Below, one piece after another: positions 10,177 to 29,730 of a DNA stretch of 64,000 bases; position 1 is the stretch's first letter, and every line of letters begins with the position of its first letter. The notes beneath the pieces were generated by a model. That model was not told where the DNA came from. It was given only the letters and a program-made list of their open reading frames with translations, and did not search any database. Both the position numbers and the translations under genes were made by a program. Source of the stretch: Burkholderiales bacterium (GTDB lineage Bacteria > Pseudomonadota > Gammaproteobacteria > Burkholderiales > Ga0077523); NCBI GenBank assembly GCA_019745565.1, contig JAIESW010000005.1:235-64234 (forward strand), given 5' to 3'.

Positions 10177-10189
10177 GACCAGCCGCGTC

Positions 10190-12990: not shown

Positions 12991-13117
12991 GCCAACCGGC
13001 CCAGGGATGTTGCGGCTCGCAGAAGCGTTCCTCGATGCCGAGGCAACCGAAAAGGGCGCGATAGAAGCCCAGCGCCCGATCGAAATCCGAGACCTCGACG
13101 AAGACATGGGAGAACAA
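12959..13117 (-). pseudogene. N-terminal fragment of a VOC (glyoxalase/bleomycin-resistance fold) gene
   Basis: My translation from TTG 13117 gives (M)FSHVFVEVSDFDRALGFYRALFGCLGIEERFCEPQHPWAGWQ, then nonsense and a stop at 12959. The break with the AHSA1 fragment lies near 12989, which looks like a deletion junction. Confidence 0.45.
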
Positions 13118-13150
13118 CCGGGCCGCCGCCGATGATCGTCGGAATCGACC

Positions 13151-14452
13151 TCAGGCGGGTTGCGCAGCAGCGCTCTGCCGCGCGACGCTGCGCCCGACGA
13201 TGGTCGCCACGATCGAGCCCGTCAGCAGGCAGGCGCCGAGGAAGACGAGGCCGGCCTGGAAGCCGCCCGCATGGTCCTTGAGCCAGCCCACCATGAACGG
13301 GCCGACGAAACCGCCGAGGTTGCCCACGGAATTGATGAAGGCGATACCGCCCGCCGCGGCCACACCGGTCAGATAGGTGGCGGGCATGGCCCAGAACACG
13401 GGTTGCGAGCAATACATGCCGATGGCCGCGAACGTCAGCGCCACCATCGCGAGCACCGGCGACTGGATGAATGCGCTGCTCACCATGCCGACGGCGCCCA
13501 GCGCCAGGGCGCCCGCGCAATGAAATACGCGTTCCTTCGTCTTGTCCGAGTGGCGCGACCACAACACCATGCAGATGGTGGCGATCAGATAGGGAACCGC
13601 CATGATCAGGCCGATGTGGAAGCTGTCGGCAACGCCCATGCCCTTGATGAGCTGGGGCATCCACAGGCTGAGGCCGTAGATGCCGATGGCAAGGGCGGTG
13701 TAGACCACGGCAAACAGCAGCACCTTCGGATGAGCGAGCGTCTGCCAGAGCGTGAGGTGCTTGGTGTCGGTGCGCGACTCGGCCTCGCGATGCAGCTTGT
13801 CGCGCAGGTGCGCTTTCTCGGCGTCGGTGAGCCACGTGGCCTTGTCAGGGCTGTCGGTCACCAGACGCAGGCAAAGGTACGCCAGCAGGAGAGTCGGCAA
13901 GCCCTCGATGATGAACAGCCAGCGCCAGCCGGGAAGCCCCATGGAGCCGTCGAAGTACTTCAGGATCAGGCCGCCCAGCGGAGCGGCGATGGTGTTGTTC
14001 AACGGACTGATGATGATGAACAGCCCGAAGATGCGCCCGCGGTATTCCGCCGGGAACCACAGCGTCAGGTAGTAGATCACCCCGGGGAAGAAGCCCGCCT
14101 CGGCCACGCCGAGCAGGAAGCGGATCACGAAGAAGCTCACGTTGCCGCTGATGAAGCCCATCGCAATCGCGAAGATGCCCCAGGTGACCATGATGCGTGC
14201 GAACCAGAGGCGGGCACCGACCTTGGACAGGATCAGGTTGCTGGGCACTTCACCGAGGAAATAACCGAAGAAGAAGAGTCCGGCACCCCAGCCGTATATG
14301 GTGGCCGTGAACCCAAGCTCGGCGTTCATGGTCAGTGCCGCGAGGCCGACGTTGAGGCGGTCGATGATGCAGATCAGGTACGCAACCAAAAGGAAGGGTA
14401 GAACCCTCCACGCCATCTTGCGTACCAGCGCTCGTTCTTCCGCTGCGTTCAT
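13151..14452 (-). CDS. MFS transporter, anion:cation symporter (ACS) type (tartrate/galactonate/phthalate-permease-like)
   Basis: 433 aa with 12 TM. IDRLNVGLAAL and GWGAGLFFFGYFLGEVPSN motifs are typical of ACS-family MFS carboxylate permeases. Confidence 0.85.
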   Translation of the reverse strand: MNAAEERALVRKMAWRVLPFLLVAYLICIIDRLNVGLAALTMNAELGFTATIYGWGAGLFFFGYFLGEVPSNLILSKVGARLWFARIMVTWGIFAIAMGFISGNVSFFVIRFLLGVAEAGFFPGVIYYLTLWFPAEYRGRIFGLFIIISPLNNTIAAPLGGLILKYFDGSMGLPGWRWLFIIEGLPTLLLAYLCLRLVTDSPDKATWLTDAEKAHLRDKLHREAESRTDTKHLTLWQTLAHPKVLLFAVVYTALAIGIYGLSLWMPQLIKGMGVADSFHIGLIMAVPYLIATICMVLWSRHSDKTKERVFHCAGALALGAVGMVSSAFIQSPVLAMVALTFAAIGMYCSQPVFWAMPATYLTGVAAAGGIAFINSVGNLGGFVGPFMVGWLKDHAGGFQAGLVFLGACLLTGSIVATIVGRSVARQSAAAQPA

Positions 14453-14519
14453 GTCGTCTCTCTCCCCGTCGTGTCGTTTGTTGTCTACCGTGAGGGCTTG
14501 CCCCGAGGCCCTGAGTCAA

Positions 14520-14823
14520 TCATATAACGGCGGGGTGTCGGCGCTCCCGGGCGCTGAGCGGGATGCGCCCCTGGCGGGAAAGTGCGGCACGGTTCTTCGC
14601 GACCTCTTCCCTGCGAGCCGCGAGATACTCGGCGTTGCCGTTTCGGCACTCGGCCTCGGACGTGATCTGCGCATCGAGGGCCCAGATATAGCCGTCCTGT
14701 CGCGTTGCTCGAGGCGTCGTATCCGGAGCGGTCGCGGGCCGCGGTGGGAGACCACTTGCCCAACCGGCAGGCCCCGAACGCTGCGAGCGCCGTACCGGCG
14801 AGGATGTAGAGGAGGGTAGCCAT
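14520..14823 (-). pseudogene. Small lipoprotein-like gene with an apparent +1 frameshift
   Basis: ATG 14823 gives MATLLYILAGTALAAFGAC... (signal/lipobox-like) with high GC3 for about 41 codons. High GC3 then moves to the next frame (DGYIWALDAQITSEAECRNGNAEYLAARREEVAKNRAALSRQGR..., stop 14520). One extra base near 14697 would join the two parts. Confidence 0.3.
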
Positions 14824-14910
14824 TTCGATCGATCGGAAAGCACGTACACTCGCTCCAGGAGGCAAGCGCACGGACACGAGCGGGACCAACACGCCTGACG
14901 GAGGAGCGCC

Positions 14911-15669
14911 ATGCAGAGCCAGTCCAAAGTCGCGATCGTGACCGGCGGAGCCGGCGGGATCGGAGAGGCCGCTGCGCGGGCGATCGCCGCGCGCGGTGTG
15001 CATGTCGTGTTGGCAGATCTGCGTCCCGCGGCTGCGGAGGAGACGGCCGCACGCCTGCGAGCCGAAGGGCTCGATGTCGAGCCGGCGAGCGTGGACGTCG
15101 CCAGCGAGGCGAGTGTGCGCGCCATGGTCGAGGCGGTGCTGAACCGCAGCGGACGCGTCGACATCCTCGTGAACAATGCCGGCGTGGAGAGCTCCAAGCC
15201 GTTCCTTGAGATCGGCCTCGACGAATACGAACGCGTCATGCGCGTGAACACGACCGGCGCCTGGCTCTGCTGCCAGGCGGTCATTCCGGCCATGCTGCGC
15301 CAGGGGAGCGGTTACATCGTGAACGTGACCTCCGTGGCCGGCCAACTCGGCGGCGGATTGCTCGGGACAGTCGCCTATTCGACGTCGAAAGGTGCGGTGA
15401 ACTCGATGACGAAGGCATTGGCGCGCGAGTTCGCCAAGTCCGGCATCCGCGTAAACGCCGTGTCGCCCAGCCTCACGATGACGGACTTCGCCCAACGCCA
15501 GCTCGACCGGCTAGCACCCGGCACCCTGGACCGGGTGATCGCGCGGACACCGATAGGGCGTGTGGGCCAGGCCGAGGAGATCGCTGCCGCCATCGCTTTT
15601 CTGGTTTCCGACGAGGCTTCCTTCGTCGTCGGTCACGTGATGAACGTGGACGGCGGAACGGCGATCTGA
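14911..15669 (+). CDS. SDR-family oxidoreductase (FabG-like)
   Basis: 252 aa. TGGAGGIG cofactor motif, NNAG, and catalytic S...YSTSK. Confidence 0.9.
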   Translation: MQSQSKVAIVTGGAGGIGEAAARAIAARGVHVVLADLRPAAAEETAARLRAEGLDVEPASVDVASEASVRAMVEAVLNRSGRVDILVNNAGVESSKPFLEIGLDEYERVMRVNTTGAWLCCQAVIPAMLRQGSGYIVNVTSVAGQLGGGLLGTVAYSTSKGAVNSMTKALAREFAKSGIRVNAVSPSLTMTDFAQRQLDRLAPGTLDRVIARTPIGRVGQAEEIAAAIAFLVSDEASFVVGHVMNVDGGTAI

Positions 15670-15680
15670 ATCGCGCGCTG

Positions 15681-16448
15681 CTACCGGGCGCCCGACGCGA
15701 GAAAGCCACCGTCGATCGGCAGGGCGATCCCCGTCACGTACGCCGCGGCGTCCGAGGCGAGATAGGCGACGGCAGCGGCGATCTCCTCGGGTGTGCCATA
15801 CCGGTTCATCGGTATCGCGTCGGTGTAGCTCTGCCGGAACTCGTCCGAATGCAGTACCCGCGTCATCGGCGTGTCGACCGGACCGGGTGCCACGGCGTTC
15901 GCGGTGATGCCGTGCTCCGCGAGTTCGACGGCCATCTGGCGCGTGAGGCCGATGACCGCCGCCTTCGAGGTCCCATAGCCGGTCCGGCCCACGCCCACCG
16001 CGCGCATGCCCGCGACCGACGCGATGTTGATGATCCGGCCCCAGCGCTCGCGCATCATGCGCCGTGCACCGTACTGGGCGCACAGGAGCACGCCGGTCAC
16101 GTTGATGGCGAGATGCGCCCGCCAGCTGTCCAGCGGGAAGTCGACGAAGGGGAAGGTCTTCGCGATGCCGGCATTGTTCACCACGATGTCGCAGCGGCCG
16201 CAGCGCCGGTCGATGACGTCGAAGGCCGCCGCCACCGATGCAGGGTCGCCGACGTCGATCCGCAGCGCGGAGGCTTCAAGGCCGGCGCCCGTGAGCGCGT
16301 CGGCCTTCTCCTGCGCCTGCGTCTCGTCGATGTCGCCGATCAGCACATGCATGCCCTGCTGTGCGAGCAGATCCGCGATGGCGGCACCGATGCCCTTGGC
16401 CGCACCGGTAATGAGGGCGACGCGCTTGATTCCGTGTTTCGTTGTCAT
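15681..16448 (-). CDS. SDR-family oxidoreductase (FabG-like), last gene of the RLP/TRAP operon
   Basis: 255 aa. TGAAKGIG, NNAG, and YGTSK. Lies 50 nt downstream of the BKACE gene on the same strand. Confidence 0.9.
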   Translation of the reverse strand: MTTKHGIKRVALITGAAKGIGAAIADLLAQQGMHVLIGDIDETQAQEKADALTGAGLEASALRIDVGDPASVAAAFDVIDRRCGRCDIVVNNAGIAKTFPFVDFPLDSWRAHLAINVTGVLLCAQYGARRMMRERWGRIINIASVAGMRAVGVGRTGYGTSKAAVIGLTRQMAVELAEHGITANAVAPGPVDTPMTRVLHSDEFRQSYTDAIPMNRYGTPEEIAAAVAYLASDAAAYVTGIALPIDGGFLASGAR

Positions 16449-16498
16449 TCTTTTTTCCTACTCATTGCAGATTCCATAGGGCCCTGGCCCCGTTCGAT

Positions 16499-17545
16499 TC
16501 AAGCCGGTGCCAGAGCCTGTCGGATCTCCCGGATGCTCGCCGGCTCCTTGCCGGCGGAGCGGATCACTCGGACGGCTTCTTCCACCAGTTGCACGTTGGT
16601 CCTGGTGGCGCCGAACGGCGCATCCTCCAGCCCTACGCGGATATGGCCGCCGCGCTGGATCGCATACGCCATCAGCGGCGCGATGTTCACATCGAGGCCG
16701 GCGATCATCCAGGGGGCATACGGTGCCTCGTCCGCCAGAAGGCGCAGGAAGGCGTCGAGCGCGTAGGGCTGCGGCGGGAAGCCGAAGCTCAACCCGTCGG
16801 AGAACATGAAGCGGTAGATGCATTGCGGCACCTGCGGGTAGGCGCGCTCCAGCGCCGCCCCCAGACGCACGAAGCCCGGTTCGTAGAGCGCGTAACCGGG
16901 ATGGAAGCGATAGCGCGTCGCGAGTTCCAGGCCGAGGCGGATGTGCGATTCGGGATTTGCATACACGAAGCCCTGCTTGCCGGCGGGGATCTCGTCGAGC
17001 CGCGTGATGTTGGTGGAACCGGGATCGACCACCGCCCACTCCAGCAATCCGCGTTTCGCCAGCGTTTCCGTGTGCGTAAAGCGCTCCTGCGCGGTCATCA
17101 TGTTGGGGGCGTCCACGCTGCCGGCGAAGGGCAGGGTCGGGTAGACGACCACGTCCTCCTTGGCACGGATGCCTTCGATGATGGCCGCGTAGAGATCGGC
17201 ATCGTCCTTCTGCCGCCCGGTCTTCTCGTCGTACGCGTGCACGTGCAGGATTGCAGCGCCGGCCTGCGCACACGCAATGCCCTCTGCCACGATGTCCCGC
17301 ACCGAGATCGGAATCCCCGGCTGGCGATCGCGAGACCACGGACCGTTCAACGACACCTCGAGCCAGGTCTTGCCCGGGGTCTGCACGGGTTTCGTCCGGG
17401 TGGCGTCGCTGCGCCCTACCATCGGCACCGACGCCAGTCCGCCCGCGAGCACCGACGCACCGAGCGCGCGCACGAAGTGCCGGCGGCTCGGCCGCCGGCC
17501 GTCCGGATCGTCATCATCATTCATCGGCATGTGGCAGCGGGTCAT
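16499..17545 (-). CDS. BKACE-family (3-keto-5-aminohexanoate cleavage enzyme-like, DUF849) protein with an N-terminal twin-arginine signal
   Basis: Start chosen at ATG 17545, preceded by AGGAGAGGAAACG. MTRCHMPMNDDDDPDGRRPSRRHFVRALGASVLAGGLASVPMVG is a Tat motif (SRRxFV) plus h-region. BKACE core follows: AGAAILHVHAYD (HxH zinc ligands) and GGHIRVGLEDAP. Confidence 0.85.
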   Translation of the reverse strand: MTRCHMPMNDDDDPDGRRPSRRHFVRALGASVLAGGLASVPMVGRSDATRTKPVQTPGKTWLEVSLNGPWSRDRQPGIPISVRDIVAEGIACAQAGAAILHVHAYDEKTGRQKDDADLYAAIIEGIRAKEDVVVYPTLPFAGSVDAPNMMTAQERFTHTETLAKRGLLEWAVVDPGSTNITRLDEIPAGKQGFVYANPESHIRLGLELATRYRFHPGYALYEPGFVRLGAALERAYPQVPQCIYRFMFSDGLSFGFPPQPYALDAFLRLLADEAPYAPWMIAGLDVNIAPLMAYAIQRGGHIRVGLEDAPFGATRTNVQLVEEAVRVIRSAGKEPASIREIRQALAPA

Positions 17546-17598
17546 CGTTTCCTCTCCTGAAGCGCGGGCGTCCGCGGGTTCGCTCGTTGCACGTCGCA

Positions 17599-18645
17599 TC
17601 ACACCAGCGGCCCGGAATACTTCTCGAGCATCGCCCAGGCCTCGTCACCGAACGTCCCGCGCCACTTCTTGTAGTAGCCCGCCTGGGATATGGCCTTGCG
17701 GAACAGCTCGGGATCGGTGCGGTGGAACTCCAGGCCGAACTTCGTCAGTTCGGTCTCGACGTTCCGGTTGACCTCGACCAGGTCTTCGCGCTCCCGCATC
17801 GCGGCCTCGTTGAAGTTGCGCGCCAGGACTTCCTTCAGATTGTCCGGCAGGGCGGCCCAGACCTTGCCGTTCACCAGGGTGAACTGGCCATCCCACATGT
17901 GGTTGGTGATGGAAATGTACTTCTGCACCTCGTACAGCTTGGCGATCAGGATCAGCGACAGCGGATTCTCCTGGCCGTCGACGATGTGCGTCTGCAACGC
18001 CGAATACACCTCGGCGAAGTTGATCGAAGTCGGTGCCGCGCCCAGATGCTGGAAGAGCGATCCCCACAGCGGGCTCACCGGCACGCGGATCTTGAAGCCC
18101 TTCAGGTCCTCCGGCGTCAGGATCGGCTTGGTGCTGCTGGTGATCTGCCGGAAGCCGATGTCCCACAGCTTGTCGAAGGCGTGCAGGTTGACCCGCGCGA
18201 TCACGCCGCGCAGATATGCGCCGAGATCGCCGTCGAGGGCCGCCCAGACCTGGGAATAGTCCTTGAAGGCGAAGCCGACCCCGTACAGTGCCGTCTGCTT
18301 CACCATGGTGGACAGCACGTTGGTGCCCGACAGCACGAACATCTCCAGGGCACCGCTGCGAAGCTGCGACAGCATGTCGGAGTCGCCGCCCAGCTGGTTG
18401 TTGGGAAACATCCGTACTTCCAGCTGCCCGTTCGATTCCTCCAGGATCTTCGGCACGATCTCCTTGACCCGCACGTTGATCGGGTGGGTCATGGGCAGAT
18501 TGCCCGCGAACTTGAACCGGTACTTCGGCCGTGCCGCCTGGCTGCGACTGCTGAGGATGCCGAACAGCGGCAGCGTGGCACCGGCAACCAATGCTCGACG
18601 ACGGTTCGCGCCCTGAGGTTGAGGCTTTGCGCTGTCGGTCGTCAT
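17599..18645 (-). CDS. dctP: TRAP transporter substrate-binding protein (DctP family)
   Basis: This is the last 348 codons of track ORF 17599-20466. ATG 18645 overlaps the permease stop as ATGA. MTTDSAKPQPQGANRRRALVAGATLPLFG is a signal (RR-type). The DctP body includes FKFAGNLPMTHP...QLEVRMFPNNQLG...ALQTHIVDGQENP. Confidence 0.9.
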   Translation of the reverse strand: MTTDSAKPQPQGANRRRALVAGATLPLFGILSSRSQAARPKYRFKFAGNLPMTHPINVRVKEIVPKILEESNGQLEVRMFPNNQLGGDSDMLSQLRSGALEMFVLSGTNVLSTMVKQTALYGVGFAFKDYSQVWAALDGDLGAYLRGVIARVNLHAFDKLWDIGFRQITSSTKPILTPEDLKGFKIRVPVSPLWGSLFQHLGAAPTSINFAEVYSALQTHIVDGQENPLSLILIAKLYEVQKYISITNHMWDGQFTLVNGKVWAALPDNLKEVLARNFNEAAMREREDLVEVNRNVETELTKFGLEFHRTDPELFRKAISQAGYYKKWRGTFGDEAWAMLEKYSGPLV

Positions 18646-20537
18646 TTCTTCAGGAAGCCGATCGAGATCCACGGCACCGTCGCCACGACGATCAGGCCCA
18701 CCGTCAGGGCCAGCAGGTAGCCGAGGATGGGGCGTATGCCCTCGTTCGGGTTGGTGCGGCCGATCGCACACGCGGCGTAGTAGCCGACGCCGAAGGGCGG
18801 CGCGAACAGGCCGATGCCCATCGCGAGGATCACGATCATGGCGTAGTGCACCTGGTGTACACCCATCTGCTTGGCGATGGGGAACAGCAGCGGACCGAAC
18901 AGCACGATCGCGGGTATGCCCTCCAGCACGCTGCCCAGGATGACGAAGACCACGATCGACACCGCGATGAAGCCGACCCTGCCGCCCGGAATCGCGGCCA
19001 TCGCTTCGGCGAGGCTCTGCGAGAAACCCGACTGCGTGAGCGACCACGCCATGCCGGTGGCCGCACCGATGATGAGCAGGATGGCGCCGGACAGCGCCGC
19101 GGTCTCCACCAGCATCGGCAGCAGGCGGCGCCAGTTGAACTGGCGGTAGATCAGCAGCCCTGCGATGACCGAGTAGGCGATGCCGATGGTCGAGACTTCG
19201 GTCGCGGTCGCGATGCCCTCCACCACGGCGGCACGGATCACGAACGGCAGGGCGATGGCGGGTGCGGCGATCAGCAGCGTGCGTCCGATCTGTTTCCCGG
19301 TCGCGCGCTGCACGTGCGACAGATCCTCGTTCCGATAGCGCCACCACACGAGCGCGCACAGGGTGAGCCCGAGCACCACCGCCGGCAGCATGCCGCCGGT
19401 AAACAGGGAGGCGATCGACACACCGGTCACCGAGCCTATCGTGAGCAGCACGAGGCTCGGCGGAATGGTTTCGGTCTGTGCACCGGTTGCGGAGAGCAGG
19501 GCCACGAGATCGCCTTTCTTCGCGCCGCGCCGCTCCATTTCCGGAAACAGGACCGGCGCTACCGCCGCCATGTCCGCGGCCTTCGACCCGGAGATGCCCG
19601 AAACCAGGTACATCGAACCCACCAGCACGTAGTGCAGGCCACCGCGCACGTGGCCCAACAGCGAACCGAGGAAAGTCACCATCGCGCGCGCCATCCCGGT
19701 CATCTCGATCAACAGCCCGAGGAAGACGAACAACGGCACCGAAAGCAGGATCAGGTGGGACATGCCCTCGTCCATGCGTCCCACGATCGCGGTCATCGGA
19801 ATCAACGTCGTGATGGCTAGGTAGCCGTACGTCGCAAGCCCGAAGGCGAAGGCGATCGGCACGCCGGCAAAGACGTTGAGCGCAACGATGCCGACGAAGA
19901 AGACGAGCAGGTTCTCGTTGTCGAGCTCGAACAGGACGGGTTGCAGAAGCAGGAGAATGCCGATGACGAAGCCGATGGCCGCCAACGCACCGAGGATGTG
20001 GCGCCAGCTGCCCGTTTCCAGAAGGCGCATCAATGCGATGAACAGCATGAGTGCGCTGCCGACCGGCAACGCGGCGGCACGCCAGGCATTGGTGATCTCC
20101 AGGGCCGGCGTGGTGATCACCACCTCGTCGTGCGCGAACTCGTAGGCCGGGTAGACGATGAGTGCCAGGAAGGTGAGCGCCGCGGCGATGGCCAGCACCT
20201 CGAGGAACGCTCGCACCTGGGGAGAAACCATGCTCACGACGGCGGTCATACGCATGTGCTCGCCGCGCCGCAGCGCGACGACGGCACCCAGCATCGCCAT
20301 CCACAGGAACAGGATCGAGGCCAGCTCGTCGGACCAGAGGATCGGTCGATGGAAGACGTAGCGGGACACCACGCCCGCGAACAGGATCACCACGTCGGCC
20401 GCCACCAGGAGCGCAGCGGCATACTCGACCGCGGTTCCGACCACCGTCTCGAGAGACACCAGCCATTTGGGCACGCCGGCTGCGGGCGGCGCAGGAGCTG
20501 CGCCGGGGTCGGCAAACTCGGAATGGGGGTTCCTCAT
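18642..20537 (-). CDS. TRAP transporter fused small/large permease (DctQ-DctM)
   Basis: 631 aa. The N-terminal roughly 170 aa has a 4-TM DctQ-like part (RPILWSDELASILFLWMAMLG), followed by a 12-TM DctM-like part. Confidence 0.9.
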   Translation of the reverse strand: MRNPHSEFADPGAAPAPPAAGVPKWLVSLETVVGTAVEYAAALLVAADVVILFAGVVSRYVFHRPILWSDELASILFLWMAMLGAVVALRRGEHMRMTAVVSMVSPQVRAFLEVLAIAAALTFLALIVYPAYEFAHDEVVITTPALEITNAWRAAALPVGSALMLFIALMRLLETGSWRHILGALAAIGFVIGILLLLQPVLFELDNENLLVFFVGIVALNVFAGVPIAFAFGLATYGYLAITTLIPMTAIVGRMDEGMSHLILLSVPLFVFLGLLIEMTGMARAMVTFLGSLLGHVRGGLHYVLVGSMYLVSGISGSKAADMAAVAPVLFPEMERRGAKKGDLVALLSATGAQTETIPPSLVLLTIGSVTGVSIASLFTGGMLPAVVLGLTLCALVWWRYRNEDLSHVQRATGKQIGRTLLIAAPAIALPFVIRAAVVEGIATATEVSTIGIAYSVIAGLLIYRQFNWRRLLPMLVETAALSGAILLIIGAATGMAWSLTQSGFSQSLAEAMAAIPGGRVGFIAVSIVVFVILGSVLEGIPAIVLFGPLLFPIAKQMGVHQVHYAMIVILAMGIGLFAPPFGVGYYAACAIGRTNPNEGIRPILGYLLALTVGLIVVATVPWISIGFLKK

Positions 20538-20746
20538 CTCAGCGAGTCGAACACCTTATGTGGATGCTCTGGTAACTCGGCCTTCCGACGATGATTCTCG
20601 CGCCCGATGGGACGCATCACTCCTTCCGTGCTCAGCACGAACGGTCACGATGGGCGAAAGATGCGGGTGACCGATGGCAGACAGTTCACATCTCAAGGCC
20701 CACGCGTGTCAAGGAGAAGTGCGCACTGCACGCTCGATGCTCGGCT

Positions 20747-22111
20747 TCAGCGATCACCTCGCGCTGCACCAAAATAATCCGCCTTGCCCATCTGACCCCC
20801 TTTCAGCGCGACCTCCAGGCCGTCGAGCTCGGGGTCTTCCGAGTAACCACGGCACAGCGGCGCGCCGGGTGTCAGCTCGGCGAGCATCTCGAGGCCGTAG
20901 AGGCCGAGTTCCTGGGTTGCATAGCTCGACGTGTCGCCGCCCGCCACGACGACGCGGCGCAGACTGGTGCGGGCCAGCAGATCGCGGGCGATCCGGCCCA
21001 GCGCGCTGCCGAGCATCCTGGCGGTATTCGCCGAGCCCGCTGTCAGCGTTTCACGTGTCGCCTGGATGCTGGGGTCATCCGGACCGGCCGCGGTGTAGAT
21101 CACGACGCTGCGTCCCGCGGATAGCGAAGCCAGGGCCCGCTCGAACACATCCTTCAATGGCGCGTCCGTGGCCTGCGGCCGGCACAGCGCCTCGGTCGGC
21201 GCACGCAAGCAGTCGAAGCCGTGCGCCGACGCCCACTGGATCTGCGTCGCCGTCATCGGGGAAGCGCTGCCGGATACGACGATCAGTTGCTTCACCGGCA
21301 CCACGGGCGGGAACGTCGCCCGCGCCGCAGCGATCACGCCGCTCGCGCGCCAGTGTGCGGCGAGCGCGTACTCGACACCGGACGAGCCGATGGCGAAGTG
21401 CTGCGCGTGCCGGGCCTGCTGCCATATCAGCCGACCGACAGTGCCGAGGCTCCGATCGTCGGCCACGTCGTAGAGCAGGAGGTCGGGACGGTCGGCCAGC
21501 TTCTGTGCGTGACGCGCATCGACCTCCGCGGCCGGGCCGTCGAGTTCAGGCAGGCTCATCAACCCGATGCTGGCTCGGGTCTGATGTGAAAGGTGGATGC
21601 GCAGATCGGCCTCGTGCATGGGCGTCACCGGGTGACGCGACATGGTCGGATGCCGGTCCAGCCGGAAAACCTCGGTGCCGGCCGCGGCGAAATGATTCCC
21701 GAATACGGTGTACCGCCGCAGCGGCGGAGCGCCCGCGGCCACCGAGATCGTCGCGCCCGGATTCAGTTTGCGGCGCACCAGGTCGGCGACGTGTCCGATG
21801 CTGCCGATCTCGGGCGCCGAATCGAAAGTGGAGCAGACCTTGTAGTGCGTGAGCGGCGCCTTCAACGCCCATAGCTCGCGCAGCACCGGGTCGAGCTGCT
21901 CGTCCATTTCAGCCGGGGACATCGCTCGACTGGTACCGGCCACACCGATGCAACGCAGGTCGGGAAACCTCGCGGCGACGAACGCCGGTTCCGGTGGCTC
22001 GAGGAACAGTACCGTCCGCAATCCGGAGACGGCCAACGCCTCCATCGCATCGGTGGAGCCGGTGAAATCGTCGCCGTAGAAGGCGAGCAGCAGTTCGGAG
22101 CCGGAAGCCAT
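20747..22111 (-). CDS. Four-carbon acid-sugar kinase family protein (DUF1537; OtnK/DtnK/OiaK-like)
   Basis: Start at ATG 22111 overlaps the RLP stop by 1 nt (TGATG). MASGSELLLAFYGDDFTGSTDAMEAL is the family N-terminal motif, and VVAGGDTSSYATQELG is the C-terminal nucleotide-binding part. The longer track ORF (to 22636) is out of frame with the RLP gene. Confidence 0.85.
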   Translation of the reverse strand: MASGSELLLAFYGDDFTGSTDAMEALAVSGLRTVLFLEPPEPAFVAARFPDLRCIGVAGTSRAMSPAEMDEQLDPVLRELWALKAPLTHYKVCSTFDSAPEIGSIGHVADLVRRKLNPGATISVAAGAPPLRRYTVFGNHFAAAGTEVFRLDRHPTMSRHPVTPMHEADLRIHLSHQTRASIGLMSLPELDGPAAEVDARHAQKLADRPDLLLYDVADDRSLGTVGRLIWQQARHAQHFAIGSSGVEYALAAHWRASGVIAAARATFPPVVPVKQLIVVSGSASPMTATQIQWASAHGFDCLRAPTEALCRPQATDAPLKDVFERALASLSAGRSVVIYTAAGPDDPSIQATRETLTAGSANTARMLGSALGRIARDLLARTSLRRVVVAGGDTSSYATQELGLYGLEMLAELTPGAPLCRGYSEDPELDGLEVALKGGQMGKADYFGAARGDR

Positions 22112-23379
22112 CAGCCGCGGCCTCCGAACTTGTCGATCGCAGCGCGCAACTCCGGATGGGTTTGCGCATATGCCTCCAGTGTTGCCCCGGCCAGCGCGGC
22201 TTGCCAGCCTTGCTGCATGCTGAGTACGCCGGCGGCGGTGCCGCCCGGATGCGCGATGATGCCGCCGCCGGCCAGGTGCACGACGTCGATGGTTCTGGTG
22301 GCGGCATAGATCGGCAGCGCCGAGCCGGCCCACTGCGCGGAGGAAATGGCGGGCATGACCCGGTAGTCCCCGTACAGCGGCGTGAGGCAGTCCTTGATGG
22401 AGCGCCCCACCTCGTCGTTGCTTTCGTAGAACTTGCCGTTGAAACCGCCCACGTGCAGGTGGTCCACACCGGCCAGCCGGCACAGTTTCTGGTAGGCCGT
22501 GAATCCGATGCCCAGCAGCGGGTGACGCGACATCGCACCGAAGTTCGCGCGGTGGCCGTGGATCGGCAGCTCGCAATGGCGGCGCACGTGAGCGAGCGCG
22601 GCGAAGCCGACGCTGTTGATGTTGATCATCACGCACGTGCCGCCGGCTTTGCGGATCAGGTCGTGGCTGCGCAGCATGTGATCCACGTCGCCGGTGATGT
22701 TGAAGGCGTACATGGCCTTCTTGCCGGTGGCGTCGGCGACCCGCTGGATCTCGGCCATGACCGAGGCGACCCGCTCGGCCAGGGAGAAATAGGGCGGGTC
22801 GGCCTGCAGCTCGTCATCCTTGATGAAGTCGAGTCCGGCCGAAGCGAGGTCGCGGACGAGCTTGCACAGCGCTTCCTTGGACAGGCCGATGCTGGGTTTG
22901 ACGATCGTCCCGATCAGCGGGCGGCCCGACACCTGTGCGAGCTTGCGCGTCCCGTCAATGCCGAACGCCGGGCCCGGATAGCGTTCGGCGAACGCGGGAG
23001 GCAATTCGAGGTCTTCCAGCCGCAACCCCGACACCTCCTGCAGTTCGTAGAGGTTGCCGGCGACCGTGGAGAGCAGACTCGGCAACGACGGGCCGAAATT
23101 GTGCAGCGGAAACGAGATGGTTATGCGGCCGCGCCGATACTGGACGTTGCCGCCGGCGGAGCGGGGGGGGTTGCTGCCCGGCAGGCTCGGAGCGGCAACC
23201 GCTTCGAGAGCTTCGATACGCAGGACCTGTGCCCCGTAGCGCTGCTTCAGCTCGTTGGTCTCTCCGGGGATCGCGACGAAGGTGCCGCTCGACTGCTCCC
23301 CGGCGATCACGGCGGCAGCATGATCGAGCGGGTGCGGTGTTTCGATGAGGTAAGTCGCTAGGACACTGTCCTGAACCAT
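22111..23379 (-). CDS. RuBisCO-like protein (form IV RLP, large-subunit homologue)
   Basis: 422 aa. GTIVKPSIGLS (compare KPKLGLS), GLDFIKDDE (carbamate Lys plus metal Asp/Glu), IHGHRA, GVDHLHVGGFNGKF, and HLAGGGIIAHPGG. No small-subunit or prk gene is nearby. Confidence 0.9.
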   Translation of the reverse strand: MVQDSVLATYLIETPHPLDHAAAVIAGEQSSGTFVAIPGETNELKQRYGAQVLRIEALEAVAAPSLPGSNPPRSAGGNVQYRRGRITISFPLHNFGPSLPSLLSTVAGNLYELQEVSGLRLEDLELPPAFAERYPGPAFGIDGTRKLAQVSGRPLIGTIVKPSIGLSKEALCKLVRDLASAGLDFIKDDELQADPPYFSLAERVASVMAEIQRVADATGKKAMYAFNITGDVDHMLRSHDLIRKAGGTCVMININSVGFAALAHVRRHCELPIHGHRANFGAMSRHPLLGIGFTAYQKLCRLAGVDHLHVGGFNGKFYESNDEVGRSIKDCLTPLYGDYRVMPAISSAQWAGSALPIYAATRTIDVVHLAGGGIIAHPGGTAAGVLSMQQGWQAALAGATLEAYAQTHPELRAAIDKFGGRG

Positions 23380-23454
23380 GTTGCCTCCTGTTTCATGGTC
23401 TTGTTGTGGGATTGTGCAGCGATTTTTCGCGTGACCCCGCAGGTTGCCGAAGGA

Positions 23455-23748
23455 TCAGGGTCGTTTGCCGGTCCGAACCACCCACCAGTTGCCGCAGAGC
23501 ATCAACATGTGCGCCAGGACTTCCGTGACGAACAGCAGCAGGAACAGCGCGCCACCCCAGTACCCGACCACCATGAGGAGCTTCGGTTCGATGAAGCACG
23601 CCAGGGCCACGGCCAGCAGGATGCCGACCGCTACGACGCGACCGAGAATCCCGATGCCCTTGCCGCGCGCGAACAGCGACTGACCGAACCCCCTGCCGCT
23701 CGTGGACCAGTCGGACAGCAGGAAGAAACGCTTGAGACCGCCGATCAT
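23455..23748 (-). CDS. Hypothetical small membrane protein (2 TM)
   Basis: 97 aa with high GC3 in this frame. TM segments VVAVGILLAVALACFI and GGALFLLLFVTEVLAHMLML. No family recognised. Confidence 0.6.
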   Translation of the reverse strand: MIGGLKRFFLLSDWSTSGRGFGQSLFARGKGIGILGRVVAVGILLAVALACFIEPKLLMVVGYWGGALFLLLFVTEVLAHMLMLCGNWWVVRTGKRP

Positions 23749-23835
23749 GGGAGTCTGGCGTGGGAGAGTGCTCGCGTGCGCAGGAAACGAAGCCGATAGT
23801 AACGCGCGCAGGGATACGCAGCGCCGGGACCGATG

Positions 23836-24120
23836 TCACGCGGCGATGAACTCCCGGGCTTCGTCGAGAGTATCGAAGCGGTGGCACCGGTGGGGCGACG
23901 GACCCAGATTGTCGACCGCAGCGATCAACGCGTGAACCACCGGATGGTTCCCGACGCACGCGATCTTCGCCTTCGGATTCCGGAGCGGGGCAATGCTGGC
24001 CCGGACGGCCATGAACTCGATGTCGATCTGAGACACGATGACTTCGGTGGCGGCGTTGAAGTCATGAATGATGAAGCGCAGATCATCGAGTCGCGCGCTG
24101 CTCTGCAGTTCGACAACCAT
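23836..24120 (-). CDS. Hypothetical small cytoplasmic protein (possibly STAS-like fold)
   Basis: 94 aa. GC3 clearly favours this frame over the antisense 140-aa ORF. No confident family assignment. Confidence 0.6.
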   Translation of the reverse strand: MVVELQSSARLDDLRFIIHDFNAATEVIVSQIDIEFMAVRASIAPLRNPKAKIACVGNHPVVHALIAAVDNLGPSPHRCHRFDTLDEAREFIAA

Positions 24121-24190
24121 GGTGGATCTCTAGGCATAGAAGAACGCAATGCACGATCCCATGATCGCTATCGCACCGAAGAGGCTACGG

Positions 24191-24664
24191 CTAGAGCTTC
24201 GTCCAGTCTTCGAGCACGCAACCTGTATTCCACCGCTCGGGCGAACTGTCGCTGACGACCGCGGTGCGAATCTGATCCTGTCGCGACACCAGTCCCACGT
24301 CGATCTCGTAGGGACCGCCCGAACCGGAACCGTAGTACCGAATGCGGATGAGCGCCGAGTTGTCGCCCCCGTATCGGCCTTCACGGTCCCACGGGGTTTG
24401 CGCAACGACCGCGGTTTCGTAGCGCGCGGTGCCGTGGTAGCAGTGCAGTATGGTCTGCGCCAGATCAGCGAAGGTCTCGGGCATCCGCGTCTCACTGGAG
24501 TCCGGCGCGAACGGCGAGACGGCGCTGTGGTTTGCCGATGCCTCGGATTGGGCCGCGACGAAGCGGATCGCCTGGAAGATCTCCTTGACCGTCAGGAACT
24601 CGAGCTGAGCCGACGCTGAATGGGACAACGCGACGAGCATGAGAATGAACCAGGCGTATCGCAC
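24191..24664 (-). CDS. Hypothetical secreted protein
   Basis: 157 aa. Signal peptide MRYAWFILMLVALSHSASA-QLE. GC3-rich frame. No family recognised. Confidence 0.65.
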   Translation of the reverse strand: MRYAWFILMLVALSHSASAQLEFLTVKEIFQAIRFVAAQSEASANHSAVSPFAPDSSETRMPETFADLAQTILHCYHGTARYETAVVAQTPWDREGRYGGDNSALIRIRYYGSGSGGPYEIDVGLVSRQDQIRTAVVSDSSPERWNTGCVLEDWTKL

Positions 24665-24770
24665 GTCTTCGGCTGCCGGATCCCGGGGGGCGGGATCGAG
24701 TTCAGAGGAAAGAGGAAATGACGGCCATCGTCCGTGTCAAACAAGGAGGCCGCACTCGTATCGGACACAT

Positions 24771-25019
24771 CTATTGATTGCGACGCATCGAGTCATCCGC
24801 TAACCGCTGTCGTGCGCGTTCCCGCAACGACAGCAGAAGAGTCTGGGTTACCGACGCAACTTCCAACAGCTCCTGCAACGGCATATGGGCCACCTCGTCG
24901 ATCCCGGTCAGCCCTGCTTCGACCAACGCATGGGCAACCTGCTCATCGATGTCGAGAGACCGCATGAACATCTCGACGGCGGCTTGATCGGGATCATCCA
25001 TGTCGACCACCAAGTTCAC
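24771..25019 (-). CDS. Free-standing NusA C-terminal acidic-repeat (AR, double helix-hairpin-helix) domain protein
   Basis: 82 aa. SLDIDEQVAHALVEAGLTGIDEVAHMPLQELLEVASVTQTLLLSLRERARQRLA aligns by eye with E. coli NusA AR1 ([53 protein letters not shown]). Confidence 0.65.
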   Translation of the reverse strand: MNLVVDMDDPDQAAVEMFMRSLDIDEQVAHALVEAGLTGIDEVAHMPLQELLEVASVTQTLLLSLRERARQRLADDSMRRNQ

Positions 25020-25356
25020 GGGTCACCTGCGCTTTGGATATGGCACCTCACGTCGGCCTGACAGTATGAACACACGATCCGGCTCAGGCGCTGCAGCATC
25101 CGGGCGGAGGACGCCTGCGCGGACTGGGTTCGACGAAGGGTGTTGTATCACGGCTGCAGGCATCGGCGCGACCCCGGCGCGACGGAGGTGAAAGCCCCCG
25201 GGACTCCTATGCCGGCCCTGGGGGAGAAGCCCTGGCTGCAGCTGTATCGGAGAACGCCGCATGTCGAACCCGCTGGATCGTCTCGGCAAAGGCCGCTCGA
25301 ATAGGGTCACCACGATGAGGGCCGTCGCGCTCCGGGACGATACAATTAGCGGGCGC

Positions 25357-27315
25357 ATGAACGATCTCGACGAAGTCTTTTCCGCTGGCGGCCCGCTGGG
25401 TCGGCACATCCCCGGGTACAAGACCCGGCCGCAGCAGATCGAGATGGCCCGGGCCATCGCGGAAACCATCGAGAATCATGGAGTGCTCGTGGCCGAGGCC
25501 GGCACGGGTACGGGCAAGACGTTCGCCTACCTCGTGCCGGCTCTGCGGTCGGGCGGCAAGGTGATCGTGTCCACCGGCACCAAGACGCTGCAGGATCAGC
25601 TCTTCGATCGCGACCTGCCCGTGGTGCGCAAGGCGCTGCAGGCGTCGGTGACCACGGCGTTGCTGAAGGGGCGCGCCAACTACGTCTGTCACTACCATCT
25701 GGAGCGCGCCAAGAACGACGGCCGGTTCGCAAGCCGGGCCGATGTCGGCTATCTGGGGCTGATCGCGAGCTATGCGCGGACCAGTTCCACCGGGGACAAG
25801 AGCGCCTGCGGCGAGGTGCCGGAAGACGCCGCGATCTGGTCGCAGGTCACGTCCACCCGCGAGAACTGCCTCGGGAGCGACTGCCCCAACTTCAAGGACT
25901 GTTTCGTGATGAAGGCGCGCAAGAACGCGCTCGAGGCCGATGTGGTGGTGGTGAACCACCATCTGTTCTTTGCCGACGTGGTGTTACGCGACGAAGGCGT
26001 GTCGGAACTGCTGCCGGCGTGCAACACGGTCATCCTCGATGAAGCGCACCAGCTCGCCGAGACAGCGAGCCTGTTCTTCGGCGAGACGACTTCCACGGCG
26101 CAGCTGCTCGAACTCGCGCGCGATACGCGGTTGGAGGGGGCGGCCGCGGCCAAGGACTTCGCGGCCTTGCCCGAATCCGCTCAGGCCCTGGAGAAGGCGG
26201 CCAAGGATCTGCGCCTGGCATGGGAAGGAGAGTCCGGCCGTGCTCCGGCGCAGGCGGCGCTCGGGCGCAAGGGCTTCGTTGCCGCGCTGGATACGGTCGC
26301 GGAAAAACTCGAGGCCCTGAACGGCCTGCTCGAGTTCCAGGCCGATCGCAGCGAGGGGCTGGCCCGATGCTGGGAGCGCAGTTGCGACCAACTGGCGCGA
26401 CTCAAGCGCTGGCATGCGGAGCCCGACCCCGACTATGTGCGGTGGATCGAGGTCTTCGCCCACTCGCTGCAACTGCATGCAACGCCGTTGTCCGTCGGCG
26501 AGATCTTCGCGCGACAACTGACCGGTACGCCGCGCGCGTGGATCTTCACCTCGGCGACGCTCTCCGTGAAGGGCGATTTCTCGCACTATGCGCGCCAGCT
26601 GGGCCTCGAGCGGGCTGAGATGCGCAGCTGGGACAGCCCCTTCGACTATCCGCATCAGGCGGTGCTGTACGTGCCCGAAGCGATGCCGGATCCGAACGAT
26701 GCCGGCTACACGCAGGCGGTGGTGAACGCGGTGCTGCCGGCGATCGTCGCGAGCGGCGGACGGGCGTTCTGTCTGTTCACCAGTCTGCGCGCCATGCGCG
26801 AGGCACGCGAGAAGATCGAGGACGGTCTGCGCAAACGCGGCCTGGATTTTCCCGTGCTGCTGCAGGGCGAGGGGTCGCGCACGGATCTGCTGGAGCGTTT
26901 CCGCAAGCTCGGCAACGCGGTGCTCGTGGGCAGCCAATCGTTCTGGGAAGGCGTGGACGTGCGCGGTCCGACGTTGTCGCTGGTGATGATCGACCGCTTG
27001 CCGTTCACGCCGCCGGACGATCCGGTGCTGACGGCGCGCATCGAGCGCATCAATGCGCAGGGCGGCAACGCGTTCATGGATCACCAGTTGCCGCAGGCGG
27101 TGATCCTGTTGAAGCAGGGAGCGGGGCGGTTGATCCGCGATGAGACCGATCGTGGCGTGCTGATGATCTGCGATCCGCGGATCATCACCAAGTCATATGG
27201 AAAGCGTGTGTGGCAGAGCCTGCCGCCGATGCGGCGGACGAGAGATCTCCGGGAGGTGGAGGCGTTCTTCGAGGAGGAGGGACAGGGGACTGCTGTCGAA
27301 ACGGCGCGAGGATAG
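25357..27315 (+). CDS. ATP-dependent DNA helicase, DinG/YoaA (XPD-like Fe-S) family
   Basis: Start moved to ATG 25357 (MNDLDEVFSAGGPL...). Walker A AEAGTGTGKTFAYL, Fe-S cysteines (YVCHY, SACGE, NCLGSDCPNFKDC), DEAH box VILDEAHQL, and C-terminal helicase motifs GSQSFWEGVD...QGAGRLIR. Confidence 0.9.
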   Translation: MNDLDEVFSAGGPLGRHIPGYKTRPQQIEMARAIAETIENHGVLVAEAGTGTGKTFAYLVPALRSGGKVIVSTGTKTLQDQLFDRDLPVVRKALQASVTTALLKGRANYVCHYHLERAKNDGRFASRADVGYLGLIASYARTSSTGDKSACGEVPEDAAIWSQVTSTRENCLGSDCPNFKDCFVMKARKNALEADVVVVNHHLFFADVVLRDEGVSELLPACNTVILDEAHQLAETASLFFGETTSTAQLLELARDTRLEGAAAAKDFAALPESAQALEKAAKDLRLAWEGESGRAPAQAALGRKGFVAALDTVAEKLEALNGLLEFQADRSEGLARCWERSCDQLARLKRWHAEPDPDYVRWIEVFAHSLQLHATPLSVGEIFARQLTGTPRAWIFTSATLSVKGDFSHYARQLGLERAEMRSWDSPFDYPHQAVLYVPEAMPDPNDAGYTQAVVNAVLPAIVASGGRAFCLFTSLRAMREAREKIEDGLRKRGLDFPVLLQGEGSRTDLLERFRKLGNAVLVGSQSFWEGVDVRGPTLSLVMIDRLPFTPPDDPVLTARIERINAQGGNAFMDHQLPQAVILLKQGAGRLIRDETDRGVLMICDPRIITKSYGKRVWQSLPPMRRTRDLREVEAFFEEEGQGTAVETARG

Positions 27316-27330
27316 TTTCGTCGATGGCTT

Positions 27331-27383
27331 GCCCGCATCCCAACCTTCCCCCACCGAAGGTGGGGGAAGGTTGGGATGCGGGC
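27331..27383. repeat. Family-A repeat, minimal form: perfect 25-bp stem / 3-nt loop hairpin
   Basis: gcccgcatcccaaccttcccccacc-gaa-ggtgggggaaggttgggatgcgggc, followed by agcgg. Lies in the 79-bp gap between the convergent helicase and DUF1232 genes, so it probably also acts as a bidirectional terminator. Confidence 0.9.
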
Positions 27384-27394
27384 AGCGGCGATAG

Positions 27395-27772
27395 CTACCT
27401 CACCAACACCCAAACCCCCCACATCCCCACAACCCAGATGGCACCGATCACCGCCGCTCCCATCCAACTCCGCGGCTTGCCCCGCTTCTCTTCGAACCAC
27501 TGCTCGGTCCGAGCTCGACATTCGGCGAGCACCCTCGCAGGAATCATCTTCAGACAGAAGTAGATCCCGATCGGCAGCAGCACGATCTCGTCGAGGTATC
27601 CCAGCACCGGAATGAAATCCGGAATGAGATCGATAGGGCTCAAAGCATAGGCGGCGAGGCCCAGCGCTAACAGCTTCGCCGCCAGCGGCGTGTCCGGATG
27701 TCGCCCCGCGAACCAGAGCGTCATCACGTCGTTGCGCAGCGCCTTCGCCCAGCGTTTCAGGCGCTGCCACAT
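27395..27772 (-). CDS. DUF1232 (YkvA-like) membrane protein
   Basis: 125 aa. LSPIDLIPDFIPVLGYLDE is the DUF1232 signature. Confidence 0.8.
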   Translation of the reverse strand: MWQRLKRWAKALRNDVMTLWFAGRHPDTPLAAKLLALGLAAYALSPIDLIPDFIPVLGYLDEIVLLPIGIYFCLKMIPARVLAECRARTEQWFEEKRGKPRSWMGAAVIGAIWVVGMWGVWVLVR

Positions 27773-27773
27773 G

Positions 27774-29117: not shown

Positions 29118-29136
29118 GCGCGAGAAACTGCGGCGG

Positions 29137-29730
29137 TCAGGACTTCTTACCGCCCGACCCGGAAGGTTCGGTGGACTCGGGTTCCGCCGTCGTGCTGCCG
29201 AAGGGCGCGAAGGGAAAGCCGCTGAACATGTTGCGCGCCTGCTTCTGGAGCTGCTGCTGCATCTCGACGAAGGTGCTGGCACTCTGCTCCAGGTAGCTGC
29301 CCATCAGGCCCTGGATGGCGGGGCCCTGCATCTTGATGAACTGGCTCCACGCGTCGTTGCCGCCCATGCCGCCCTCGCCGAACTTGGCGAGCGACTGCTC
29401 CTGCAGCTTGCGCTGGATTTCCATGAAGGTCTGGATGTTCTTTTCCAGATAGTTGCCCATCATCCCCTGCATGGCGTTGCCATAGAAACGGATGATCTGC
29501 GACAGCATGTCGGAGGAGAACATCGGCGCGCCCGCCGATTCTTCCTCGAGGATGATCTGCAGCAGGATGCTGCGGGTCAGATCCTCGTTGGTCTTCGCAT
29601 CGACCACCTTGAAGGGCACTTGCTCGAGCACCAGCGCCTTTACGTCGGTCAGCGTGATGTAGCTGCTGGTCGCGGTGTCGTACAGGCGGCGGTTCGGGTA
29701 CTTCTTGATCAGCCGAAGTTCCTCAGCCAT
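29137..29730 (-). CDS. phaR: Polyhydroxyalkanoate synthesis repressor PhaR
   Basis: 197 aa. N-terminal [20 protein letters not shown] is the PhaR DNA-binding signature. Confidence 0.9.

Follow-up and report, generated by a model that had tools for sequence, protein, structure and literature searches.

The question raised by this locus is what a bacterium does with a form IV RuBisCO-like protein (RLP) whose gene sits with those of a DUF1537 kinase, a tripartite ATP-independent periplasmic (TRAP) transporter, a BKACE-family protein and a short-chain dehydrogenase/reductase (SDR). RLPs offer the main view of the evolution of RuBisCO chemistry and, to our knowledge, just a handful of them have assigned reactions. 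The six genes lie together on the minus strand (15681-23379, hereafter the block) of a 64-kb stretch of contig JAIESW010000005.1 from a Burkholderiales bacterium (hereafter the window). With moderate confidence, we read the block as genes for the catabolism of a small hydroxy-carboxylate or acid sugar, which would be oxidised, phosphorylated and then decarboxylated or cleaved as in DUF1537 acid-sugar pathways; the substrate would probably be a C4-C6 compound, perhaps with a branch at C2. This conserved cluster varies the known RLP/DUF1537 acid-sugar theme and does not amount to a new kind of system. The gene composition, which the original prediction had fitted to no pathway, is less unique than it looked, being a reduced form of a larger conserved cluster. 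All six predicted genes are confirmed from the sequence at their coordinates, and hidden Markov model (HMM) searches with Pfam uphold every family call, well above the gathering scores; a convergent second SDR and an ACS-type major facilitator superfamily (MFS) permease flank the block, as had been described:

22111-23379, minus strand: RLP (form IV RuBisCO-like protein), 422 aa, first gene of the block
20747-22111, minus strand: DUF1537 kinase (four-carbon acid sugar kinase family), 454 aa
20538-20746, minus strand: spacer between kinase and DctQM, 209 nt
18642-20537, minus strand: fused TRAP membrane subunit DctQM, 631 aa (Pfam DctQ and DctM)
17599-18645, minus strand: TRAP solute-binding protein DctP, 348 aa (Pfam DctP)
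16499-17545, minus strand: BKACE-family (DUF849) TIM-barrel zinc protein, 348 aa (Pfam BKACE)
17402-17545, minus strand: predicted twin-arginine translocation (Tat) signal peptide of the BKACE-family protein, about residues 1-48
15681-16448, minus strand: SDR1, classical short-chain dehydrogenase, 255 aa (adh_short and adh_short_C2), last gene of the block
14911-15669, plus strand: SDR2, second classical SDR, convergent (Pfam)
13151-14452, minus strand: ACS-type MFS permease (MFS_1)

The RLP matches PF02788 (RuBisCO_large_N, 47 bits) and PF00016 (RuBisCO_large, 219 bits), both above gathering scores, and retains the RuBisCO residues E60, T65, N123, K175, K201, D203, E204, H294, R295, H327, K334, S379, G403 and G404; the altered positions are K177S, W66F, H298F, G380S and G381A. 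Judged from these residues, neither the metal/carbamate site nor the loop-6 lysine is disrupted, but the protein is not a bona fide carboxylase. Its scores are far under the cut-offs of the form III (267 vs 497 bits), form I-type (251 vs 438), form II (146 vs 489) and MtnW models. Among solved structures, 3nwr, an RLP with no assigned function, comes closest (51% identity, 435 bits), and the RLP structures of MtnW, YkrW, C. tepidum and R. palustris reach 114-210 bits, no better than archaeal form III RuBisCO. The best NCBIfam match is OiaX (NF042437) at 441 bits against a cut-off of 700; on the same model an R. leguminosarum protein named OiaX by PGAP scores 778 bits, and RLPs from three further clades, unassigned and kinase-linked, reach 395-425 bits. 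The kinase shows the two-domain architecture of its family (PF07005 SBD_N, 182 bits; PF17042 NBD_C, 127 bits); it matches OiaK best (NF042436, 509 bits vs 700), followed by OtnK (NF043035, 197 vs 350) and DtnK (NF047819, 72 vs 450), and the OiaK cut-off of 700 is reached by none of five other kinases scored. Both proteins thus fall outside the curated OiaX and OiaK equivalogs, as the original prediction needed them to.

In a neighbour-joining tree, the RLP clusters with about 40 sequences from metagenome-assembled genomes (MAGs) of Burkholderiales (71-87% identity), together with those of Paraburkholderia fungorum and P. sediminicola (69%) and of many Paenibacillus, Cohnella and Ammoniphilus (60-65%). 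The window itself comes from the MAG of an uncultured soil or freshwater Burkholderiales bacterium, and its RLP is identical to one NCBI MAG protein. This clade stands apart from the PGAP-OiaX clade (44% identity), from a Phyllobacterium/Sinorhizobium/Agrobacterium/Burkholderia clade (46-55%) and from the clade of 3nwr, Azospirillum and Paracoccus (48-51%). The phylogeny proposed earlier as a check thus yields a separate clade, with OiaC (A. radiobacter K84) and OiaX (X. autotrophicus) represented by the NCBIfam model and PGAP-labelled proxies. Among these proxies, the RLP of an R. leguminosarum plasmid (L085, 8995-11594) is named OiaX by PGAP yet described as a decarboxylase, which is the function of OiaC; the adjoining kinase scores 479 bits on the OiaK model, against the cut-off of 700. 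The OiaX and OiaK equivalogs seem to be anchored on different organisms, or their naming to be mixed up. A plasmid RLP of S. meliloti pA (L088, 9001-10263), the plasmid-borne one closest to that of the window (54%), lies between two PGDH_C-like genes, and no DUF1537 kinase match was found in the 19 kb of sequence compared.

The proteins of the window and those of one relative were compared by tblastn with 99 loci, and gene content was counted over the 24 loci of the RLP clade with at least 9 kb of sequence downstream of the RLP. The kinase gene is directly downstream of the RLP gene in all 24. A PGDH_C-domain oxidoreductase and a 131-aa protein accompany the pair in 14, an IlvD/Edd dehydratase in 11, a BKACE-like gene in nine, TRAP genes in six and an RraA-like gene in six. 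The co-occurrence of RLP, kinase, BKACE and TRAP genes that was to be looked for in other genomes is therefore complete for the first two and partial for the others: the TRAP and BKACE-like genes are accessory, not core. The SDRs are the most constant partners, an orthologue of SDR1 or SDR2 being found in most loci. SDR1 orthologues (78-90% identity) follow the RLP-kinase pair in 10 of the 24 relatives, and stand directly after the kinase where TRAP and BKACE are missing (L015, L025, L029, L032); SDR2 orthologues (65-84%) occur in 14 of 24 and provide the first gene of the RLP operon in several loci (L014, L022, L032, L037), so that SDR2 probably belongs to the system. One of these loci, L025, is a MAG contig titled 'Bordetella parapertussis' that carries an environmental Burkholderiales RLP-kinase-SDR1 arrangement; its species label looks doubtful. 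In NCBIfam, the MFS permease comes nearest to the D-galactonate transporter subfamily and to HpaX, without reaching either cut-off; it is syntenic only in the closest relatives (L096, L097), and its membership in the system is uncertain.

In its full version, with Pfam calls for its members, the cluster consists of a divergent LysR gene followed by RLP, kinase, PGDH_C, 131-aa protein, IlvD/Edd, DctQM, DctP, BKACE, SDR and RraA genes, and clusters much like it occur at other loci; minimal versions are RLP-kinase-SDR1, SDR2-RLP-kinase-SDR1 and SDR2-RLP-kinase-TRAP-SDR1. None of the PGDH_C, 131-aa, IlvD/Edd, RraA and LysR genes is found anywhere in the 64-kb window, and since these five genes of the larger cluster are missing, the window holds a reduced form of it. 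The original prediction had noted that the block encodes no transcription factor; this holds for the block and the genes beside it, the relatives possessing the divergent LysR. The reduced form is neither chance nor an assembly artefact, because the same six-gene layout, with SDR2, the MFS gene and the flanking synteny, recurs in independent metagenome assemblies (JGI metagenome contigs whose RLPs are 96% and 93% identical, and a Logan assembly).

Gene content also varies across RLP clades, and the RLP-kinase pair is therefore a mobile core that recruits dehydrogenases and transporters in several combinations. An Agrobacterium plasmid carries a LysR gene and an RLP-kinase-SDR-KdgT series whose SDR is 64% identical to SDR1, its RLP (just 48%) belonging to another clade. 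The PGDH_C gene is common to the relatives of the window, to rhizobial OiaX-type clusters (L085, L086) and to Ammoniphilus; its product, an oxidoreductase of about 280 aa with a KARI_N-like Rossmann fold and PF16896, is encoded beside RLP-kinase in at least three RLP clades (L085, L086, L042, L083 and others) and could serve as decarboxylating dehydrogenase in a route of the hamamelose type. A different variant occurs in the cultured P. fungorum and P. sediminicola (L040/L041, 10001-15289; RLP 69%), where a PhyH-family dioxygenase gene separates the RLP from a divergent kinase (39%), with two DctP genes and a LysR gene upstream.

How would such a cluster work? The TRAP system, made of a Tat- or Sec-exported DctP and the fused DctQM, would import the acid; one or both of the NAD-type SDRs would produce a 3-oxo (beta-keto) acid by oxidation at a secondary alcohol; the DUF1537 kinase would phosphorylate the terminal hydroxyl; and the RLP would form an enediolate at its intact carbamyl-lysine/magnesium site, then decarboxylate the 3-oxo-acid phosphate or cleave it in the fashion of RuBisCO, delivering a ketose phosphate or 3-phosphoglycerate to central metabolism. 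The Tat-exported BKACE-family protein, as a periplasmic zinc enzyme independent of CoA (plausibly a hydrolase), would make or trim the carboxylate bound by DctP.

This reading is favoured because the RLP-kinase pair is invariant and SDR1 or SDR2 present in most loci, because the Agrobacterium plasmid pairs an SDR1-like enzyme with an RLP-kinase of a different clade, and because the reduced layout is stable in independent samples. It also draws on the best matches of the two core proteins, OiaX and OiaK, which act on a 3-oxo acid and the phosphate of that acid; on the retention by the RLP of K175, K201, D203, E204, H294, R295, H327 and K334; and on the presence of a homologous TRAP beside RLP-kinase pairs of two other clades. 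The conserved Tat signal of the BKACE-family protein, its association with RLP-kinase clusters and its replacement of Glu143 by Ala, as in cis-epoxysuccinate hydrolase, are in line with it as well. A precedent for the first steps exists in an SDR, L-threonate 3-dehydrogenase Ltn3D, that feeds a DUF1537 kinase followed by a decarboxylase (Watanabe et al. 2026, PMC12994016). The order of SDR, kinase and RLP put forward in the original prediction fits both this precedent and the constancy of the SDRs.

Both SDRs show classical motifs (TGAAKGIG, VLIGD and YGTSK in SDR1; TGGAGGIG, VVLAD and YSTSK in SDR2) with an Asp at the end of beta-2, a position from which both would be expected to prefer NAD. 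PDB searches with either of them return generic FabG-like matches only, above 1e-40.

The TRAP component set is complete in Pfam (DctP, DctQ and DctM), and the NCBIfam scores exceed their cut-offs (DctQM, TIGR00786, 275 vs 268 bits; DctP, TIGR00787, 231 vs 175). DctP begins with a twin-arginine type signal (18538-18645), NRRRALVAGATLPLFGIL, also given as ANRRRALVAGATLPLFGIL, and its orthologue in L083 with VTRRRVLSAGAALPLFGII; both exported proteins of the block, DctP and the BKACE-family protein, may thus be routed through the Tat pathway. Homologous TRAP genes lie beside RLP-kinase pairs of two other RLP clades (L040, P. fungorum; L087, Azospirillum), with 64-71% identity for DctQM and 45-51% for DctP. 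Across the whole mature protein, DctP is 52% identical to RPB_2686 (PDB 4oan), whose density was reportedly modelled as (S)-2-acetolactate. That compound has the carbon skeleton of 3-oxo-isoapionate. This gives a weak hint, by analogy, that the DctP ligand is a small 2-hydroxy, 2-branched or keto acid, weak because RPB_2686 is encoded next to an acyl-CoA ligase and no RLP. 2-Acetolactate is listed in a review (PMC5812351) among the TRAP ligands found in the study behind that entry. RPB_2686 was considered as a case of a 2-acetolactate-type solute-binding protein within an RLP cluster, and rejected, its context being TRAP genes and an AMP-binding (acyl-CoA) ligase gene without RLP or kinase.

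The most unusual element of the cluster is the Tat-exported, Glu143-less BKACE-family protein. It belongs to PF05853 (194 bits), with all NCBIfam BKACE equivalogs far below cut-off, and keeps the HxH and R..ED zinc-site motifs, LHVHA and GHIRVGLED aligning with the Kce motifs that supply the zinc ligands His46, His48 and Glu230. In the alignment to Kce (2y7d), Glu143 is replaced by Ala219 (PEVEVYE in Kce, PGYALYE here), so that the full catalytic set is not present; the numbering was checked through His46, His48 and Glu230, with an offset of 6 in the 2y7d chain. In the work on the Kce structure, Glu143 is reported to be catalytic. The PGYA motif is common to all BKACE-family homologues compared, and the best PDB match, cis-epoxysuccinate hydrolase 5zmu, likewise lacks this Glu, with Ala at the same position.

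In agreement with the Tat export named in the original prediction, a Tat-like motif, SRRHFVRAL, is present by inspection, followed by a hydrophobic stretch and an SDA/T c-region (signal SRRHFVRALGASVLAGGLASVPMVG). Of the 52 homologues whose N terminus is extended by 30 residues or more, 51 have RR-x-hydrophobic and a hydrophobic stretch, usually ending in A-x-A, the lone exception being a truncated gene call. These extensions are otherwise divergent; the signal of the relatives reads [ST]RRRF[LMV]xAACAPLL...A-x-A. By contrast, relatives at 64-76% identity start 3-4 residues ahead of the barrel and lie in unrelated gene contexts. The signal thus appears genuine and conserved, and of the Tat-type BKACE genes with known context, 11 of 12 are inside RLP-kinase clusters. 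The idea that they always are was rejected as an absolute, since one homologue (L099, 1495-2523; 79% identical) is a stand-alone copy next to a SnoaL-like gene; the contig ends 1.5 kb upstream of it, and the 10 kb downstream hold no RLP-kinase pair. The protein is non-canonical for its family: because of the conserved Tat signal and the missing Glu143, a cytoplasmic, acetyl-CoA-dependent BKACE reaction is unlikely, and the predicted periplasmic location would exclude acetyl-CoA. It is probably a periplasmic zinc enzyme independent of CoA, and possibly a hydrolase yielding the carboxylate for the TRAP system, which is the weakest step of the model. In the family, a 'G7' ('non-BKACE') group without the catalytic residues is inactive on keto acids (10.1101/2023.02.15.528638), and the window protein resembles this group.

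Could the locus be a D-apionate (or D-hamamelonate) pathway with other accessory genes, the RLP and kinase being orthologues of OiaC/OiaX and OiaK and the SDRs replacing the oxidoisomerase? OiaX and OiaK are the best NCBIfam matches, JGI labels some 86% identical proteins as 3-oxoisoapionate-4-phosphate transcarboxylase/hydrolase, and the RLP-kinase-PGDH_C trio of the relatives is also found in the rhizobial cluster with a PGAP-named OiaX. The reported 4oan ligand, sharing its carbon skeleton with 3-oxo-isoapionate, speaks for this explanation too. Both proteins, however, fall about 200-260 bits under the equivalog cut-off that a true member passes with 778, and the PGAP-named OiaX, at 44% identity, differs from the window RLP at N123, K177, H327 and S379. 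No Gfo/Idh/MocA enzyme, ATP-binding cassette (ABC) system or lactonase is found in the window or its relatives, and the PGDH_C gene is missing from the window. ApnO, moreover, combines oxidation with hydroxymethyl migration (PMC12994016), which is not expected of a classical SDR. This explanation is doubtful.

The junctions raise another question, as to whether the block is one unit at all. The original prediction described one operon with very short or overlapping junctions, and the four that it gave are exact: RLP stop and kinase start overlap as TGATG, DctQM and DctP overlap as ATGA, and the gaps are 53 nt from DctP to BKACE and 50 nt from BKACE to SDR1. It omitted the 209 nt between kinase and DctQM. 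In alignment A1 this spacer, which includes a TTGACA block, is conserved between the window, L096 and L097 with a mean column identity of 91%; it holds an invariant CTTCTCCTTGACACGCG block; between the window and the 93%-identity relative it is better conserved than the region upstream of the RLP. It occupies the position where relatives carry up to three extra genes, and a BLAST search with its 209 nt found no remnant of those genes, thus no deletion scar. A weak hairpin follows the kinase stop, and the spacer has no Rfam match. The spacer could be an operator or regulatory region or, plausibly, an internal promoter, so that the block may not form a single transcript.

Two unrelated units might then lie side by side, an RLP-kinase pathway and a TRAP-BKACE-SDR1 route of the deoxyribonate type, in which the SDR makes a beta-keto acid that BKACE cleaves. 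The spacer with its TTGACA block, the variation of gene content among relatives at just this junction and the adjacency of BKACE and SDR1 (50 nt) speak for such a division, and an SDR, a BKACE and an MFS transporter do form a genetically supported deoxyribonate module (10.1101/205583). It is nevertheless improbable: the Tat signal and the absence of Glu143 make cytoplasmic acetyl-CoA cleavage unlikely, SDR1 orthologues stand directly after the kinase in four loci without TRAP and BKACE, Tat-type BKACE genes are nearly confined to RLP-kinase clusters, and the same TRAP family accompanies RLP-kinase in other clades. A CO2-fixing RuBisCO or a methionine-salvage enolase/isomerase with incidental neighbours is very improbable and was rejected as an identity for the RLP on residues and model scores, most catalytic residues being kept (including K201 and K334) and a beta-carbonic anhydrase gene lying about 5 kb away, but with K177S, H298F, G380S and G381A, scores far under the form I, II, III and MtnW cut-offs, 114-210 bits for the MtnW, YkrW, C. 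tepidum and R. palustris RLPs vs 435 for 3nwr, an invariant kinase partner and no phosphoribulokinase among the annotated neighbours.

Several points weigh against the acid-sugar pathway that we favour. The whole pathway is deduced from sequence comparison. For the superclade to which the RLP belongs, no fewer than three reactions have been reported (decarboxylation, transcarboxylation/hydrolysis and oxygenation), and for this reason the reaction type of the RLP cannot be read from its sequence. Most members of the clade have neither the TRAP nor the BKACE-like gene, and one Tat-type BKACE gene stands alone (L099). The block may be transcribed in two parts, divided at the conserved spacer. Being generic FabG-like enzymes with no specific PDB neighbour, the SDRs could equally reduce a product. 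Finally, at 52% identity the 4oan ligand is only a hint, and RPB_2686 itself sits without an RLP.

What would an assignment bring? Nearly all RuBisCO catalytic residues persist in the RLP clade, and a DUF1537 kinase always accompanies it. The clade is common in uncultured soil and freshwater Burkholderiales; it is also testable, because it occurs in cultivable Paenibacillus, Cohnella and Paraburkholderia. Knowing the substrate would add to the pathways for acids that derive from plants or ascorbate and show whether SDRs can replace the oxidoisomerase step, and an exported BKACE-family enzyme would extend that family past acetyl-CoA-dependent cleavage and outside the cytoplasm. A bolder reading can be held only tentatively: the RLP clade would act on a substrate not yet linked to RLPs, for example a linear, 2-C-methyl or 2-C-hydroxymethyl 3-oxo acid phosphate made directly by the SDR, and the BKACE-family protein would be the first periplasmic, CoA-independent member, making the TRAP ligand outside the cell. 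If true, the two together would define a hitherto undescribed pathway of acid catabolism in soil and freshwater bacteria that are abundant and uncultured.

Around the block, three small minus-strand open reading frames (97, 94 and 157 aa; 23455-24664) lie immediately upstream of the RLP without Pfam match; small unannotated ones are present at the equivalent site in L096, none in L097. A few kb past the MFS gene (9691-10834 and 7259-8992) are genes for a beta-carbonic anhydrase, an anthrone-oxygenase-like (DUF1772-type) protein and a pyrroloquinoline quinone (PQQ)-dependent dehydrogenase. On the other side, synteny with L096 and L097 extends over 25261-33210 and comprises a DinG-like helicase, a MiaB-like radical-SAM/TRAM protein, the phasin/PhaR region, PhaC (polyhydroxyalkanoate, PHA, synthase) and an acetoacetyl-CoA reductase-like SDR. 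Rfam gave no regulatory RNA match over 13000-25500, and promoter and terminator scans returned sites no more numerous than in shuffled sequence.

How, then, does the cluster compare with known systems? Literature searches on DUF1537 with RuBisCO-like proteins and on 3-oxo-isoapionate found nothing on this cluster type. The D-apionate routes, reportedly described by Carter and colleagues in 2018 (Nat Chem Biol) and cited in PMC6302742 and PMC12994016, are said to proceed through ApnO and OiaK and then OiaC or OiaX. The window shares with them an RLP gene followed by a DUF1537 kinase gene, with OiaX and OiaK as best HMM matches; the chemistry would likewise take place on a 3-oxo acid phosphate, and the relatives of the window, not the window itself, share a PGDH_C gene with the rhizobial clusters. 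It differs from them in scores far under the equivalog cut-offs and 44% identity to the PGAP OiaX, and in having a TRAP system, SDRs and an exported BKACE-like protein where they have a Gfo/Idh/MocA oxidoisomerase, an ABC system and a lactonase. Consistent with the original prediction, the Gfo/Idh/MocA and sugar ABC genes are present in the rhizobial clusters (L085, L086) and absent in the window, L083, L092, L093, L096 and L097.

In the tetronate routes, said to have been worked out by Zhang and colleagues in 2016, LtnD or OtnI reportedly acts first, then OtnK and then OtnC. The logic of the window would be alike, with a dehydrogenase, a DUF1537 kinase and decarboxylation of a 3-oxo acid phosphate; in the Ltn3D route an SDR makes the 3-oxo acid directly, and TRAP uptake is common for such acids. 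The decarboxylase would be an RLP here and is the class II aldolase-like OtnC there, and the kinase reaches 197 bits on the OtnK model vs 350. The likeness of SDR1 and SDR2 to Ltn3D lies in pathway logic, their PDB neighbours being generic FabG-like proteins.

A third comparison concerns branched sugars. Kim, Lim and Lee are said to have described, in 2018, how a kinase, a decarboxylating dehydrogenase and an RLP process a branched sugar acid from plants. Compared by description only, the RLP-kinase-PGDH_C trio of the relatives resembles the core of the D-hamamelose pathway, the window itself being without the PGDH_C gene. That pathway, in Ochrobactrum anthropi, includes an RLP oxygenase as related in citing papers (PMC8914248, PMC10176493). 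Across the apionate and hamamelose routes, the roles of RLPs are those of a decarboxylase, a transcarboxylase/hydrolase or an oxygenase (PMC6302742, PMC10176493).

Among proteins of known structure, 3nwr has the same active-site signature as the window RLP except for K177N and H298Y in 3nwr; it belongs to the other clade, with Azospirillum and Paracoccus RLPs, in a context of LacI, TRAP, VOC protein, RLP and kinase genes without SDR. DctP is close to RPB_2686 (4oan, 52% identity), whose context has neither RLP nor kinase. With canonical BKACE enzymes such as Kce, the exported protein shares the Pfam family and the HxH and R..ED zinc motifs, and its gene adjoins an SDR gene as in the deoxyribonate cluster (10.1101/205583); unlike them, it has a Tat signal and an Ala for Glu143, and its nearest match in sequence is a CoA-independent hydrolase.

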